The translations under genes were made by a program, and so were the position numbers. A stretch of DNA of 64,000 bases, from NCBI GenBank assembly GCA_000146045.2, contig BK006941.2:480001-544000 (forward strand), written 5' to 3'. Source of the DNA: TPA_inf: Saccharomyces (lineage: Eukaryota). Each line of letters begins with the position of its first letter. Position 1 is the first letter of the stretch. Of the stretch, positions 8,901 through 63,291 are shown piece after piece. Under the pieces are notes generated by a model. That model was not told the origin of the DNA and made no database searches. It saw only the letters and a list, made by a program, of their open reading frames with translations.

Positions 8901-9442
8901 TTTACGGGCCAGAGTTATTCTTCAAGAAACATGAAGATGAAATAACAAGTCACCAACAGCAGCAACTGAATGCCATGACATTCAACACTTTTGTTTGGTT
9001 GCAATTTTTTACCATGTTAGTATCGAGAAAATTAGATGAAGGTGATGGTATATCAAACTGGAGAGGCAGGATTTCTGCCGCCAATTTGAATTTCTTCCAA
9101 GACTTGGGTAGAAACTATTATTTTCTCACGATCATGGCGATCATTGGCAGCTGTCAAGTTTTAATCATGTTTTTTGGTGGCGCACCATTTTCTATTGCCA
9201 GACAAACCAAATCAATGTGGATAACCGCGGTACTGTGTGGTATGTTGTCTCTAATCATGGGGGTGCTAGTGAGAATCTGCCCCGATGAAGTAGCAGTGAA
9301 GGTATTTCCGGCTGCTTTCGTTCAAAGATTCAAGTACGTATTTGGACTCGAGTTCCTCAGAAAAAACCATACTGGAAAACACGACGATGAAGAAGCGCTG
9401 TTGGAGGAATCTGATAGTCCAGAGTCCACCGCCTTTTATTAA
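5921..9442 (+). CDS. PMC1: Vacuolar Ca2+-transporting P-type ATPase (PMCA family), 1173 aa
   Basis: ORF 5900..9442. The protein matches PMC1 from MSRQDENSALLANNENNKPSY..., so the start is taken at the Met at 5921. Motifs [20 protein letters not shown] and PEGLP are present. Confidence 0.93.
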   Translation: MSRQDENSALLANNENNKPSYTGNENGVYDNFKLSKSQLSDLHNPKSIRSFVRLFGYESNSLFKYLKTDKNAGISLPEISNYRKTNRYKNYGDNSLPERIPKSFLQLVWAAFNDKTMQLLTVAAVVSFVLGLYELWMQPPQYDPEGNKIKQVDWIEGVAIMIAVFVVVLVSAANDYQKELQFAKLNKKKENRKIIVIRNDQEILISIHHVLVGDVISLQTGDVVPADCVMISGKCEADESSITGESNTIQKFPVDNSLRDFKKFNSIDSHNHSKPLDIGDVNEDGNKIADCMLISGSRILSGLGRGVITSVGINSVYGQTMTSLNAEPESTPLQLHLSQLADNISVYGCVSAIILFLVLFTRYLFYIIPEDGRFHDLDPAQKGSKFMNIFITSITVIVVAVPEGLPLAVTLALAFATTRMTKDGNLVRVLRSCETMGSATAVCSDKTGTLTENVMTVVRGFPGNSKFDDSKSLPVSEQRKLNSKKVFEENCSSSLRNDLLANIVLNSTAFENRDYKKNDKNTNGSKNMSKNLSFLDKCKSRLSFFKKGNREDDEDQLFKNVNKGRQEPFIGSKTETALLSLARLSLGLQPGELQYLRDQPMEKFNIEKVVQTIPFESSRKWAGLVVKYKEGKNKKPFYRFFIKGAAEIVSKNCSYKRNSDDTLEEINEDNKKETDDEIKNLASDALRAISVAHKDFCECDSWPPEQLRDKDSPNIAALDLLFNSQKGLILDGLLGIQDPLRAGVRESVQQCQRAGVTVRMVTGDNILTAKAIARNCAILSTDISSEAYSAMEGTEFRKLTKNERIRILPNLRVLARSSPEDKRLLVETLKGMGDVVAVTGDGTNDAPALKLADVGFSMGISGTEVAREASDIILMTDDFSAIVNAIKWGRCVSVSIKKFIQFQLIVNITAVILTFVSSVASSDETSVLTAVQLLWINLIMDTLAALALATDKPDPNIMDRKPRGRSTSLISVSTWKMILSQATLQLIVTFILHFYGPELFFKKHEDEITSHQQQQLNAMTFNTFVWLQFFTMLVSRKLDEGDGISNWRGRISAANLNFFQDLGRNYYFLTIMAIIGSCQVLIMFFGGAPFSIARQTKSMWITAVLCGMLSLIMGVLVRICPDEVAVKVFPAAFVQRFKYVFGLEFLRKNHTGKHDDEEALLEESDSPESTAFY

Positions 9443-9707
9443 TAGACGCGCTCTATATGTTTATACAAATGTAAGTGACCAAATGAAAAGATGTGTGTAA
9501 TAGTTATATTTTCAAAATTGTACACTATATTATATAATCAATAAAAAGAAACTATCTGAAATAGCATGTCCTCCTAAACAAATTCCTTTTTACCCTTTTA
9601 TGCATTACAAGTGGACCAAAAGGACTGGAAATGGTAAAAAGAAATAAGAATTTAAACATGCTATAAATTTCTTTTGTTAATTGCAAATTTTTTGTTTTTA
9701 TCACCGA

Positions 9708-54998: not shown

Positions 54999-55210
54999 AC
55001 ACAAATGCACGGATGCATATATAAAATATAGAATTTTGCTTTATATTATTTTGAGCGGGCTAGAATCCACTCAGTGTACAAAGTACTATTCATTATATTG
55101 AACTGAAGAGGCAAGAACTATTTAGCTCAATCAACCACCTTAATAAAGTATTTGGAGTGATATATCGGCTTGTTTTAGTTTAATTCTTGTGGATATTTAG
55201 ATATCAAGGT

Positions 55211-55530
55211 TGTTGGAATAAAAATCCACTATCGTCTATCAACTAATAGTTATATTATCAATATATTATCATATACGGTGTTAAGATGATGACATAAGTT
55301 ATGAGAAGCTGTCATCGAAGTTAGAGGAAGCTGAAGTGCAAGGATTGATAATGTAATAGGATAATGAAACATATAAAACGGAATGAGGAATAATCGTAAT
55401 ATTAGTATGTAGAAATATAGATTCCATTTTGAGGATTCCTATATCCTTGAGGAGAACTTCTAGTATATTCTGTATACCTAATATTATAGCCTTTATCAAC
55501 AATGGAATCCCAACAATTATCTCAACATTC
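55211..55530 (+). repeat. Solo Ty1 LTR (delta) fragment, forward orientation, 3'-truncated (lacks the last ~17 bp) with a small internal deletion
   Basis: Begins TGTTGGAATAAAAATCC and is about 97% identical to the LTRs of the downstream Ty1, ending at ...CTCAACATTC. Confidence 0.8.
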
Positions 55531-55752
55531 CCCCATTTTTCAAAGGTAATTTTTGGAATTCCTTGCAAAGCTGTAATTAGGTATACAAAATACACTAGAT
55601 ACTCTACTCGACGATATAGTAATCCTCATAAGGGAATCGGTATTTCTAATATTACGTTATTTTTATTTTCTTTTACTGTTTTCTATGTTGTAGTTCATAA
55701 TTCCATAACATTATTAATCCTAGTGCTTCAGCTTCCATTGAATCTGATGACT
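55531..55752 (-). repeat. Diverged Ty1/Ty2-type LTR (delta) fragment in inverted orientation, truncated at both ends
   Basis: The reverse complement aligns to LTR positions ~100-325 (…GGAAGCTGAAGCAC…GGAATGAGGATT…AGGATTACTATATCGTCGAGTAGAG…) with about 20% divergence. Confidence 0.6.
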
Positions 55753-55759
55753 TTTTCTC

Positions 55760-56097
55760 TGTTGGAATAAAAATCCACTATCGTCTATCAACTAATAGTT
55801 ATATTATCAATATATTATCATATACGGTGTTAAGATGATGACATAAGTTATGAGAAGCTGTCATCGAAGTTAGAGGAAGCTGAAACGCAAGGATTGATAA
55901 TGTAATAGGATCAATGAATATAAACATATAAAACGGAATGAGGAATAATCGTAATATTAGTATGTAGAAATATAGATTCCATTTTGAGGATTCCTATATC
56001 CTCGAGGAGAACTTCTAGTATATTCTGTATACCTAATATTATAGCCTTTATCAACAATGGAATCCCAACAATTATCTCAACATTCACATATTTCTCA
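55760..56097 (+). repeat. Ty1 5' LTR (delta), 338 bp
   Basis: TGTTGGAATAAAAATCC…CATATTTCTCA. The TYA start codon lies inside it, as in Ty1. Confidence 0.9.
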
Positions 56098-57379
56098 TGG
56101 TAGCGCCTGTGCTTCGGTTACTTCTAAGGAAGTCCACACAAATCAAGATCCGTTAGACGTTTCAGCTTCCAAAACAGAAGAATGTGAGAAGGCTTCCACT
56201 AAGGCTAACTCTCAACAGACAACAACACCTGCTTCATCAGCTGTTCCAGAGAACCCCCATCATGCCTCTCCTCAAACTGCTCAGTCACATTCACCACAGA
56301 ATGGGCCGTACCCACAGCAGTGCATGATGACCCAAAACCAAGCCAATCCATCTGGTTGGTCATTTTACGGACACCCATCTATGATTCCGTATACACCTTA
56401 TCAAATGTCGCCTATGTACTTTCCACCTGGGCCACAATCACAGTTTCCGCAGTATCCATCATCAGTTGGAACGCCTCTGAGCACTCCATCACCTGAGTCA
56501 GGTAATACATTTACTGATTCATCCTCAGCGGACTCTGATATGACATCCACTAAAAAATATGTCAGACCACCACCAATGTTAACCTCACCTAATGACTTTC
56601 CAAATTGGGTTAAAACATACATCAAATTTTTACAAAACTCGAATCTCGGTGGTATTATTCCGACAGTAAACGGAAAACCCGTACGTCAGATCACTGATGA
56701 TGAACTCACCTTCTTGTATAACACTTTTCAAATATTTGCTCCCTCTCAATTCCTACCTACCTGGGTCAAAGACATCCTATCCGTTGATTATACGGATATC
56801 ATGAAAATTCTTTCCAAAAGTATTGAAAAAATGCAATCTGATACCCAAGAGGCAAACGACATTGTGACCCTGGCAAATTTGCAATATAATGGCAGTACAC
56901 CTGCAGATGCATTTGAAACAAAAGTCACAAACATTATCGACAGACTGAACAATAATGGCATTCATATCAATAACAAGGTCGCATGCCAATTAATTATGAG
57001 AGGTCTATCTGGCGAATATAAATTTTTACGCTACACACGTCATCGACATCTAAATATGACAGTCGCTGAACTGTTCTTAGATATCCATGCTATTTATGAA
57101 GAACAACAGGGATCGAGAAACAGCAAACCTAATTACAGGAGAAATCTGAGTGATGAGAAGAATGATTCTCGCAGCTATACGAATACAACCAAACCCAAAG
57201 TTATAGCTCGGAATCCTCAAAAAACAAATAATTCGAAATCGAAAACAGCCAGGGCTCACAATGTATCCACATCTAATAACTCTCCCAGCACGGACAACGA
57301 TTCCATCAGTAAATCAACTACTGAACCGATTCAATTGAACAATAAGCACGACCTTCACCTTAGGCCAGGAACTTACTGA
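56057..57379 (+). CDS. TYA: Ty1 Gag (TYA), 440 aa
   Basis: [34 protein letters not shown]… is the canonical Ty1 Gag. It ends at TGA 57377-57379. Confidence 0.93.
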
Positions 57380-60300
57380 ATCTACGGTAAATCACACTAA
57401 TCATTCTGATGATGAACTCCCTGGACACCTCCTTCTCGATTCAGGAGCATCACGAACCCTTATAAGATCTGCTCATCACATACACTCAGCATCATCTAAT
57501 CCTGACATAAACGTAGTTGATGCTCAAAAAAGAAATATACCAATTAACGCTATTGGTGACCTACAATTTCACTTCCAGGACAACACCAAAACATCAATAA
57601 AGGTATTGCACACTCCTAACATAGCCTATGACTTACTCAGTTTGAATGAATTGGCTGCAGTAGATATCACAGCATGCTTTACCAAAAACGTCTTAGAACG
57701 ATCTGACGGCACTGTACTTGCACCTATCGTACAATATGGAGACTTTTACTGGGTATCTAAAAGGTACTTGCTTCCATCAAATATCTCCGTACCCACCATC
57801 AATAATGTCCATACAAGTGAAAGTACACGCAAATATCCTTATCCTTTCATTCATCGAATGCTTGCGCATGCCAATGCACAGACAATTCGATACTCACTTA
57901 AAAATAACACCATCACGTATTTTAACGAATCAGATGTCGACTGGTCTAGTGCTATTGACTATCAATGTCCTGATTGTTTAATCGGCAAAAGCACCAAACA
58001 CAGACATATCAAAGGTTCACGACTAAAATACCAAAATTCATACGAACCCTTTCAATACCTACATACTGACATATTTGGTCCAGTTCACAACCTACCAAAA
58101 AGTGCACCATCCTATTTCATCTCATTTACTGATGAGACAACAAAATTCCGTTGGGTTTATCCATTGCACGACCGTCGCGAGGACTCTATCCTCGATGTAT
58201 TTACCACGATACTAGCTTTCATTAAAAACCAATTTCAGGCCAGTGTCTTGGTTATACAAATGGACCGTGGTTCTGAGTATACTAACAGAACTCTCCATAA
58301 ATTCCTTGAAAAAAATGGTATAACTCCATGCTATACAACCACAGCGGATTCCCGAGCACATGGAGTCGCTGAACGGCTAAACCGTACCTTATTAGATGAC
58401 TGCCGTACTCAACTGCAATGTAGTGGTTTACCGAACCATTTATGGTTCTCTGCAATCGAATTTTCTACTATTGTGAGAAATTCACTAGCTTCACCTAAAA
58501 GCAAAAAATCTGCAAGACAACATGCTGGCTTGGCAGGACTTGATATCAGTACTTTGTTACCTTTCGGTCAACCTGTTATCGTCAATGATCACAACCCTAA
58601 CTCCAAAATACATCCTCGTGGCATCCCAGGCTACGCTCTACATCCGTCTCGAAACTCTTATGGATATATCATCTATCTTCCATCCTTAAAGAAGACAGTA
58701 GATACAACTAACTATGTTATTCTTCAGGGCAAGGAATCCAGATTAGATCAATTCAATTACGACGCACTCACTTTCGATGAAGACTTAAACCGTTTAACTG
58801 CTTCATATCATTCGTTCATTGCGTCAAATGAGATCCAAGAATCCAATGATCTTAACATAGAATCTGACCATGACTTCCAATCCGACATTGAACTACATCC
58901 TGAGCAACCGAGAAATGTCCTTTCAAAAGCTGTGAGTCCAACCGATTCCACACCTCCGTCAACTCATACTGAAGATTCGAAACGTGTTTCTAAAACCAAT
59001 ATTCGCGCACCCAGAGAAGTTGACCCCAACATATCTGAATCTAATATTCTTCCATCAAAGAAGAGATCTAGCACCCCCCAAATTTCCAATATCGAGAGTA
59101 CCGGTTCGGGTGGTATGCATAAATTAAATGTTCCTTTACTTGCTCCCATGTCCCAATCTAACACACATGAGTCGTCGCACGCCAGTAAATCTAAAGATTT
59201 CAGACACTCAGACTCGTACAGTGAAAATGAGACTAATCATACAAACGTACCAATATCCAGTACGGGTGGTACCAACAACAAAACTGTTCCGCAGATAAGT
59301 GACCAAGAGACTGAGAAAAGGATTATACACCGTTCACCTTCAATCGATGCTTCTCCACCGGAAAATAATTCATCGCACAATATTGTTCCTATCAAAACGC
59401 CAACTACTGTTTCTGAACAGAATACCGAGGAATCTATCATCGCTGATCTCCCACTCCCTGATCTACCTCCAGAATCTCCTACCGAATTCCCTGACCCATT
59501 TAAAGAACTCCCACCGATCAATTCTCGTCAAACTAATTCCAGTTTGGGTGGTATTGGTGACTCTAATGCCTATACTACTATCAACAGTAAGAAAAGATCA
59601 TTAGAAGATAATGAAACTGAAATTAAGGTATCACGAGACACATGGAATACTAAGAATATGCGTAGTTTAGAACCTCCGAGATCGAAGAAACGAATTCACC
59701 TGATTGCAGCTGTAAAAGCAGTAAAATCAATCAAACCAATACGGACAACCTTACGATACGATGAGGCAATCACCTATAATAAAGATATTAAAGAAAAAGA
59801 AAAATATATCGAGGCATACCACAAAGAAGTCAATCAACTGTTGAAGATGAAAACTTGGGACACTGACGAATATTATGACAGAAAAGAAATAGACCCTAAA
59901 AGAGTAATAAACTCAATGTTTATCTTCAACAAGAAACGTGACGGTACTCATAAAGCTAGATTTGTTGCAAGAGGTGATATTCAGCATCCTGACACTTACG
60001 ACTCAGGCATGCAATCCAATACCGTACATCACTATGCATTAATGACATCCCTGTCACTTGCATTAGACAATAACTACTATATTACACAATTAGACATATC
60101 TTCGGCATATTTGTATGCAGACATCAAAGAAGAATTATACATAAGACCTCCACCACATTTAGGAATGAATGATAAGTTGATACGTTTGAAGAAATCACTT
60201 TATGGATTGAAACAAAGTGGAGCGAACTGGTACGAAACTATCAAATCATACCTGATACAACAATGTGGTATGGAAGAAGTTCGTGGATGGTCATGCGTAT

Positions 60301-61325
60301 TTAAAAACAGTCAAGTGACAATTTGTTTATTCGTAGATGATATGGTATTGTTTAGCAAAAATCTAAATTCAAACAAAAGAATTATAGACAAGCTTAAGAT
60401 GCAATACGACACCAAGATTATAAATCTAGGCGAAAGTGATGAGGAAATTCAATATGACATTCTTGGCTTGGAAATCAAATACCAAAGAGGTAAATACATG
60501 AAATTGGGTATGGAAAACTCATTAACTGAAAAAATACCCAAACTAAACGTACCTTTGAACCCAAAAGGAAGGAAACTTAGCGCTCCAGGTCAACCAGGTC
60601 TATATATAGACCAGCAAGAACTAGAGCTAGAAGAAGATGATTACAAAATGAAGGTACATGAAATGCAAAAGCTGATAGGTCTAGCATCATATGTTGGATA
60701 TAAATTTAGATTTGACCTATTATACTACATCAACACACTTGCACAACATATACTATTTCCGTCCAAGCAAGTGTTAGATATGACATATGAATTGATACAG
60801 TTCATATGGAATACGAGAGATAAGCAATTAATATGGCACAAAAGCAAACCTGTTAAGCCAACAAATAAATTAGTTGTTATAAGCGATGCCTCGTATGGCA
60901 ACCAACCGTATTATAAATCACAAATTGGCAACATATATTTACTTAATGGAAAGGTAATTGGAGGAAAGTCCACCAAGGCTTCATTAACATGTACTTCAAC
61001 TACGGAAGCAGAAATACACGCGATAAGTGAATCTGTCCCATTATTAAATAATCTAAGTTACCTGATACAAGAACTTGACAAGAAACCAATTACCAAAGGA
61101 TTACTAACCGACAGTAAATCTACAATCAGTATAATTATATCCAATAATGAAGAGAAATTTAGGAACAGATTTTTTGGTACTAAAGCAATGAGATTGAGAG
61201 ATGAAGTATCAGGAAATCATCTGCACGTATGCTATATCGAAACCAAAAAGAATATTGCAGACGTAATGACCAAACCTCTTCCGATAAAAACATTCAAACT
61301 ATTAACAAACAAATGGATTCATTAG
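56057..61325 (+). CDS. TYB: Ty1 Gag-Pol (TYA-TYB) polyprotein, 1755 aa, made by +1 ribosomal frameshift at CTT-AGG-C (57359-57365); Pol frame 57363..61325 encodes protease, integrase, RT and RNase H
   Basis: The frameshift heptamer CUUAGGC lies 4 codons before the TYA stop. The +1 frame continues [33 protein letters not shown] (protease DSGAS) through integrase HHCC/DDE and the RT YVDDM motif (LFVDDMV) to 61325. Confidence 0.9.
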
Positions 61326-61347
61326 ATCTATTACATTATGGGTGGTA

Positions 61348-61685
61348 TGTTGGAATAAAAATCCACTATCGTCTATCAACTAATAGTTATATTATCAATA
61401 TATTATCATATACGGTGTTAAGATGATGACATAAGTTATGAGAAGCTGTCATCGAAGTTAGAGGAAGCTGAAACGCAAGGATTGATAATGTAATAGGATC
61501 AATGAATATAAACATATAAAACGGAATGAGGAATAATCGTAATATTAGTATGTAGAAATATAGATTCCATTTTGAGGATTCCTATATCCTCGAGGAGAAC
61601 TTCTAGTATATTCTGTATACCTAATATTATAGCCTTTATCAACAATGGAATCCCAACAATTATCTCAACATTCACATATTTCTCA
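61348..61685 (+). repeat. Ty1 3' LTR (delta), 338 bp, identical to 5' LTR by eye
   Basis: Same 338-bp sequence as 55760-56097, immediately preceded by the PPT. Confidence 0.9.
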
Positions 61686-61849
61686 TTCTCAATCTTCATG
61701 GTATCTTTTTTACACCGTATATGATAAAATACAAGTAATATAAATACCAGCCACTGGATGACATTGAAATTTTATTCTAATAAATGCATCAGCTCTTTAA
61801 AAACATTGCTATTTAGCTATTTGAAGCCAGAAATTTTCACAGATTACCA

Positions 61850-61921
61850 TCCGATATAGTGTAACGGCTATCACATCACGCTTTCACCGTGGAGACCGGG
61901 GTTCGACTCCCCGTATCGGAG
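61850..61921 (+). tRNA. tE(UUC): tRNA-Glu (anticodon UUC)
   Basis: TCCGATATAGTGTAACGGCTATCACATCACGCTTTCACCGTGGAGACCGGGGTTCGACTCCCCGTATCGGAG has A-box TAGTGTAACGG and B-box GGTTCGACTCC, with anticodon TTC. A T-run follows. Confidence 0.93.
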
Positions 61922-62109
61922 TGTTCTTTTTCTTACCTCTTGAAAAAGAGGTAGTAAAGTCAATATAAATTCTTGGCTGAAGTATTTCAATACAATTGGT
62001 CAAGGAAGTTATTATTTTTTTAATGACTTATATCTGTCCAACACAACAGGTTACACCATATAATCTCTATTTACTGGACAGGCGGAAATCGATAGTTTAG
62101 CTTTCCTAA

Positions 62110-63291
<1,182 letters not shown>

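Follow-up and report, generated by a model that had tools for sequence, protein, structure and literature searches.

How successive Ty insertions came to share one short interval upstream of a single transfer RNA (tRNA) gene, and whether they lie side by side or one within another, is the question raised by the DNA 5' of a tRNA-Glu(UUC) gene (61850-61921, plus strand; ARAGORN; Rfam RF00005, 61.9 bits) in the 64-kb stretch analysed here, which we call the window and in whose coordinates all positions are given unless stated otherwise. The Gag open reading frame (ORF) at 56057-57379 proved in an exact-match look-up to be, residue for residue, the Ty1-GR1 Gag polyprotein of Saccharomyces cerevisiae S288C (Q12085 / NP_058159.1), and this match, together with exact matches of the flanking ORFs, therefore identifies the window as part of S288C chromosome VII and the element as YGRWTy1-1 (Ty1-GR1; ORFs YGR027W-A/YGR027W-B). 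Upstream of the tRNA gene we find this full-length Ty1, a forward solo delta, that is, a solitary Ty1 long terminal repeat (LTR), and a much more diverged inverted delta. We hold it to be nearly certain that the locus records successive Ty integrations upstream of this one tRNA-Glu gene, both younger ones nested in the old inverted delta.

Structure of the nested deltas

The inverted delta is one full-length old minus-strand delta that two insertions have cut in three, and both younger elements sit inside it, not beside it. Its pieces, all in minus orientation, are the 3'-terminal 23 bp at 55188-55210, ending in the AAGGT that later became the target-site duplication (TSD) of the solo delta; the segment at 55543-55759, covering approximately LTR positions 93-318; and the 5' part at 61686-61782, LTR positions 1-97. 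Using blastn at word size 7, with the young LTR and the reconstructed old delta as queries against the 64-kb window, LTR positions 93-318 matched 55759..55544 at 72% identity (E=2.7e-25) and LTR positions 3-97 matched 61780..61686 (E=7.9e-7), the two matches overlapping by exactly the 5 bp of the Ty1 TSD. Excision of the solo delta with one AAGGT and of the Ty1 with one TTCTC, joining 55188-55210, 55548-55759 and 61691-61782, yields a reconstructed delta of 327 bp whose reverse complement aligns across LTR positions 1-338 with 245 matches, 77 mismatches and 21 gap columns. It is about 76% identical to the young LTR in this global alignment, with a divergence of about 24-28%, and its tRNA-proximal end lies 67 bp from the tRNA-Glu gene. 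An earlier interpretation of this DNA, the sequence-only reading, had seen a single inverted fragment at 55531-55752, about 20% diverged, and had thereby misplaced both ends of the middle piece, missed the two outer ones and set the divergence too low.

Between the first two pieces lies a complete forward solo delta at 55211-55542 (plus strand, 332 bp, TG...CA). Its global alignment with positions 1-338 of the young LTR comprises 325 matches, 7 mismatches and 6 gap columns, an identity of 97.9% at aligned bases, and four of the seven mismatches fall in its last 12 bases (CCCCATTTTTCA vs CACATATTTCTCA). The full LTR stands here without internal sequence and is flanked by a 5-bp TSD, AAGGT, whose left copy (55206-55210) is identical to the right copy (55543-55547) and which occurs singly in strains with an empty site. 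The end-to-end alignment and the duplication together therefore identify the solo delta as complete, not 3'-truncated. From established work on such elements, we infer that a Ty1 inserted in the old delta and that LTR-LTR recombination left this LTR as its remnant.

Between the second and third pieces stands YGRWTy1-1 itself, a full-length Ty1 of 5926 bp at 55760-61685. Its 5' LTR (55760-56097) and 3' LTR (61348-61685), both of 338 bp and on the plus strand, are 100% identical (338/338), flank an internal region of about 5.2 kb and share the termini TG...CA (TGTTGG...TTCTCA), and the 5-bp TSD TTCTC is found on the left at 55755-55759 and on the right at 61686-61690. A primer-binding site, TGGTAGCGCC (56098-56107, plus strand), known for its complementarity to the 3' end of initiator tRNA-Met, directly adjoins the 5' LTR, and a polypurine tract, GGGTGGTA (61340-61347, plus strand), adjoins the 3' LTR. 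TYA (Gag; 56057-57379, plus strand) is open over 440 residues, its start codon lying within the 5' LTR, and the +1 frameshift heptamer CTTAGGC at 57359-57365 (plus strand) overlaps the start of the TYB (Pol) frame, which encodes protease, integrase and reverse transcriptase (RT)/RNase H at 57363-61325 (plus strand). Joining 56057-57361 to 57363-61325 gives a Gag-Pol protein of 1755 residues with zero internal stops, in which Pfam locates TYA at 17-400, Pol_BBD at 459-533, rve at 663-763, SH3_retrovirus at 829-890 and RVT_2 at 1281-1488, the copia-type order of Gag, protease, integrase and RT/RNase H. The protease DSG, integrase HHCC and RT FVDD motifs are present, and the integrase C-terminus retains an intact bipartite nuclear localization signal (bNLS) of the form KKR-29aa-KKR, including KNMRSL. 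The LTRs, 5-bp TSD, primer-binding site, polypurine tract, TYA/TYB overlap with its frameshift, domain order and identity to a named copy all place the element in Ty1 (Ty1/copia-type, Pseudoviridae).

The gap from the 3' LTR to the tRNA-Glu gene measures 164 bp, or 159 bp from the end of the TSD, and the 0/338 differences between the two LTRs argue for a recent insertion. These results reproduce what had been read from the letters for the Ty1: its exact extent, its identical LTRs and TTCTC duplication, a recent insertion about 165 bp upstream of the tRNA, and intact Gag, Pol, primer-binding site, polypurine tract and frameshift site. The sequence is consistent with a transposition-competent element, and LTR phylogeny puts it in the 'Active' clade (Carr 2012, PMC3511429).

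The nested structure predicts what a chromosome without the younger insertions should look like, and other S. cerevisiae assemblies carry that allele. The comparison set comprised ten chromosome-scale S. cerevisiae loci (L001-L010) from contigs that encode an identical Msp1p, and the old delta is present in every one. In eight of them (L002-L004 and L006-L010) the interval from the left flank to the tRNA is 391-393 bp, against the 394 bp predicted by the reconstruction, to which they align with only 3-7 mismatches. These eight read ...ATATCAAGGTAATTTTT... and ...GACTTTTTCTCAATCTTC..., an uninterrupted old delta with one AAGGT and one TTCTC each, and in all of them 55188-55210 is contiguous with 55548 onward. 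The expectation that the locus is polymorphic among strains is thereby borne out, as eight assemblies are without both the Ty1 and the solo delta, and TTCTC is indeed single-copy in strains that lack the element.

The remaining two assemblies differ from these eight and from each other. One (L005; GCA_002571405.2, CP046087.1; 2988-9645) has both the Ty1 and the solo delta, and its Ty1 departs from that of the window only by four 1-bp insertions or deletions in homopolymer runs (window 56826, 57023, 59074 and 59800), which in all likelihood are errors of assembly and not real mutations; they split the called Ty ORFs of that assembly into pieces of 269, 422 and 521 residues. The other (L001; GCA_947370195.1, CANBVP010000008.1) lacks either S288C insertion and retains the old delta, inside which it carries, at 9171-9502 of that locus, a 332-bp Ty2 solo LTR with the TSD CTTTT. 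This LTR is identical to TY2-LTR (Carr 2012 File S1, PMC3511429) at 324/332 positions (97.6%) without gaps and 84% identical to the young Ty1 LTR, and it lies 140 bp upstream of tRNA-Glu, displaced by 19 bp from the TTCTC site towards the tRNA. Identification of the extra 337 bp of this allele as the S288C solo delta or as a solo LTR at the Ty1 site was ruled out by 209 and 53 mismatches, respectively.

Alternative explanations and the order of insertion

One other explanation holds that the elements are ancestral and that the 'empty' alleles arose through deletion or through assembly collapse of repeats. Draft assemblies often do collapse repeats, a bias pointed out by Carr 2012 (PMC3511429), but the empty alleles described here are on chromosome-scale contigs, each longer than 1 Mb. 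Precise excision is not a property of LTR retrotransposons, and loss by LTR-LTR recombination would leave a solo LTR between two TSDs, whereas the eight alleles show a single TSD and no LTR at both sites. The absence of any difference between the LTRs of the Ty1 favours recent insertion, and S. paradoxus has neither the Ty1 nor the solo delta. We therefore regard an ancestral origin of both elements as extremely unlikely.

Comparison with S. paradoxus (locus L011, CP020248.1) also bears on the age of the old delta. Synteny breaks off exactly at 55187/55188 and picks up again close upstream of the tRNA; neither the old inverted delta nor the solo delta nor the Ty1 is present at this orthologous locus, which instead holds an unrelated forward LTR 3' fragment (L011:3296-3394) 154-252 bp upstream of the orthologous tRNA-Glu. 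The old delta thus either belongs to the S. cerevisiae lineage alone or has been lost or replaced in S. paradoxus. Flanking intergenic DNA (54459-55187 and 61783-62202) is 74-77% identical between the two species, so the 24% LTR divergence of the old delta, being close to the interspecies divergence of its flanks, cannot be read simply as age. The comparison suggests that the old delta did not decay in place but descends from another LTR lineage, one that is older.

The sequence-only reading had offered another arrangement, in which a 3'-truncated forward delta, ending at 55530, abuts an inverted fragment at 55530/55531 through recombination between opposed deltas, with the Ty1 landing next to these remnants. 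By eye, homology does seem to stop near 55530, and that end was called there because the forward delta has four of its seven mismatches within its last 12 bases. The global alignment nevertheless reaches 55542 with the terminal CA, the forward delta is bracketed by a perfect AAGGT duplication, and the old delta extends on both outer sides, at 55188-55210 and 61686-61782; the intact old delta and clean empty sites of eight strains already refute this arrangement, to which we give practically no credence. The start of the forward delta at 55211 stands while its end and its truncation do not, and the junction moves to 55542/55543. For the origin of that junction the same reading had also named insertion into an existing delta, and this suggestion was right; with the remainder of the old delta on both outer sides and with the empty sites, LTR-LTR recombination of opposed deltas is not needed. 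The Ty1, too, landed inside the old inverted delta, whose remainder at 61686-61782 lies on its tRNA side. The feature first reported is thus real, correctly located and largely correctly interpreted, with two structural details corrected. Finally, a chance origin of the nested structure is excluded by the TSDs (each 5-bp match has p ~0.001), the blastn E-values and the eight exact empty sites.

Several points nonetheless weigh against successive nested integrations as we describe them. No TSD was found for the old delta, as its flanks ATTCT and AATGC do not match, and its mode of arrival may be read only from LTR homology and the synteny break with S. paradoxus. The 23-bp piece at 55188-55210, taken by itself, is too short and too diverged for significance without the TSD and empty-site evidence. 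The placement of the solo delta before the Ty1 comes from a single strain column of a table in which 44% of the data are missing: the strain scores of Carr 2012 File S2 (PMC3511429) are 22/22 (SGRP) for the old delta, 3/18 for the solo delta and 2/19 for the Ty1, and in one SGRP strain the solo delta is scored as present and the Ty1 as absent.

With these points in mind, the history of successive integrations is reconstructed as follows. An ancient Ty1/Ty2-type element entered in minus orientation, with its promoter-proximal LTR end 67 bp upstream of the tRNA, and would then have collapsed to the solo delta now found in all S. cerevisiae strains examined. A plus-strand Ty1 next entered this old delta at AAGGT, a site that in the pre-insertion sequence lay 371 bp upstream of the tRNA, and LTR-LTR recombination would have shrunk it to the complete solo delta at 55211-55542. 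YGRWTy1-1 came latest, entering the same old delta at TTCTC, and now stands with its 3' LTR 164 bp from the tRNA. The claim that at least three independent integrations (old delta, solo delta and Ty1) had struck the same interval close to this gene, which RNA polymerase III (Pol III) transcribes, holds. Across S. cerevisiae lineages there are four independent insertions within 371 bp upstream of tRNA-Glu, three of them inside one 327-bp delta (AAGGT, TTCTC and CTTTT), and S. paradoxus adds one more.

Published annotation and neighbouring genes

Much of this structure has been recorded before. Carr, Bensasson & Bergman 2012 (PMC3511429) annotate the locus as chrVII_i8+_TY1, chrVII_st100+_TY1 and chrVII_s187-_TY1, and for all features discussed here their sacCer2 coordinate equals the window coordinate + 480004. 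In their File S3, 535764-541689 is marked 'REannotate_1-nested' in the minus-strand chrVII_s187-_TY1, whose fragments 535548-535763 and 541690-541786 are pieces 2 and 3 of our old delta, and chrVII_st100+_TY1 (535215-535546) has the exact boundaries of the solo delta at 55211-55542. The same study classes the Ty1 as full-length, of the active clade and polymorphic (2/19 strains), and the old delta as inactive and fixed (22/22 strains). YGRWTy1-1 as annotated (SGD; PMC3511429) is therefore the same locus, with the Ty1 already nested in a minus-strand delta, and the nested, polymorphic Ty1 and the full-length solo delta were published in 2012. The published annotation differs from ours in beginning the old delta at the equivalent of 55544, without the 23-bp piece at 55188-55210, and the nesting of the solo delta in the same old delta is therefore unrecorded there. 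Our sole addition is small: from this 23-bp left piece it follows that the solo delta, like the Ty1, is nested. The significance is slight beyond annotation, where a complete and nested solo delta makes a small correction to the existing fragments. The locus is a textbook case of Ty1 targeting to tRNA genes combined with nested LTR accumulation.

Two entries in the published tables deserve comment. File S2 of Carr 2012 (PMC3511429) calls chrVII_st100+_TY1 'Fixed' despite its presence in 3/18 strains (0.17), and the eight empty-site assemblies confirm that the solo delta at 55211-55542 is polymorphic, contrary to that label. The SGD names given in the table of the same paper (YGLWdelta11 and YGLWdelta12) denote left-arm, Watson-strand features, whereas the features themselves lie on the right arm, one of them on the Crick strand. 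Published work makes routine use of YGRWTy1-1, for instance to illustrate chromatin or as a substrate of Chr7R recombination; its role as a non-allelic recombination substrate on Chr7R is documented (bioRxiv 10.1101/2025.05.08.650247).

The nested cluster is bounded by genes identified through exact protein matches: MSP1 (Msp1p, 62203-63291) on one side, and RPS25A (Rps25ap, 54132-54458, minus strand) and THG1 (Thg1p, 51883-52596, minus strand) on the other. The second tRNA gene of the window, a tRNA-Asp, lies at 51609-51682, and an Rfam scan of the window at gathering thresholds returned nothing besides the two tRNAs. The blastn searches with the young LTR and the reconstructed old delta recovered no further delta copies in the whole 64-kb window and none near the tRNA-Asp gene. 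In contrast to the S. cerevisiae window, which has no LTR near tRNA-Asp, the S. paradoxus locus carries, 191 bp upstream of the tRNA-Asp beside THG1, a full solo LTR (L011:7164-7495) that shares 80% identity with the Ty1 LTR. Farther upstream, a serine-rich ORF of 551 residues (49264-50919, plus strand), which we take to be MTL1, has a weak Mid2-family match in the gene calls of other strains. The lengths at which it is called elsewhere include 564, 567, 574 and 580 residues, which suggests length polymorphism of its poly-Ser tracts.

Ty1 targeting and comparison with known systems

Ty1 integrates in nucleosomal DNA within approximately 1 kb upstream of Pol III genes and generates 5-bp duplications. 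Insertions accumulate and nest there because, as is well established, the DNA upstream of Pol III genes offers a safe haven. Bridier-Nahmias and colleagues reportedly traced this targeting in 2015 to an interaction between integrase and AC40, and, from this established knowledge, Pol III tethering through the AC40-binding segment of the integrase C-terminus would steer insertions at the present locus as well. In S288C the insertion sites lie 67, 164 and 371 bp upstream of tRNA-Glu, all within 1 kb. Asif-Laidin 2020 (PMC7459421) showed that AC40, a Pol III subunit, is bound by the integrase bNLS segment, which directs integration up to 1 kb upstream of tRNA genes (tDNAs), and integration occurs in the three nucleosomes that lie upstream of tDNAs (PMC7459421; Nguyen 2023, PMC10050235). 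The AC40-binding segment, a bNLS with K617, S621 and L622 (PMC7459421), is present in the Gag-Pol of YGRWTy1-1, and its binding to AC40 is predicted from the protein sequence.

Beyond Pol III proximity, the old inverted delta could itself be a preferred landing pad, for example through a well-positioned nucleosome. The idea arises because three independent Ty1/Ty2 insertions, in different S. cerevisiae lineages, fell in one 327-bp delta, with only 19 bp between two of them. The same three insertions fit equally well with the periodic hot spots known to lie upstream of any tDNA, and we consider such a preference improbable. If it were true, the natural alleles at this locus would provide a ready series for testing nucleosome-phased integration.

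Nested LTR clusters at yeast tRNA genes are said to be covered by the survey of Kim et al. (1998), and the locus shows the same pattern without substantive difference: an old, degenerate solo LTR interrupted by younger elements, in mixed orientations, beside a tDNA. Nor does it differ from the AC40-dependent targeting system of Ty1 (PMC7459421, PMC10050235), as the sites described here, 67-371 bp upstream of tRNA-Glu, fall within the 1-kb, three-nucleosome window in which that system operates. Together, these comparisons identify the locus as an ordinary and well-understood outcome of repeated Ty1 integration beside Pol III genes.

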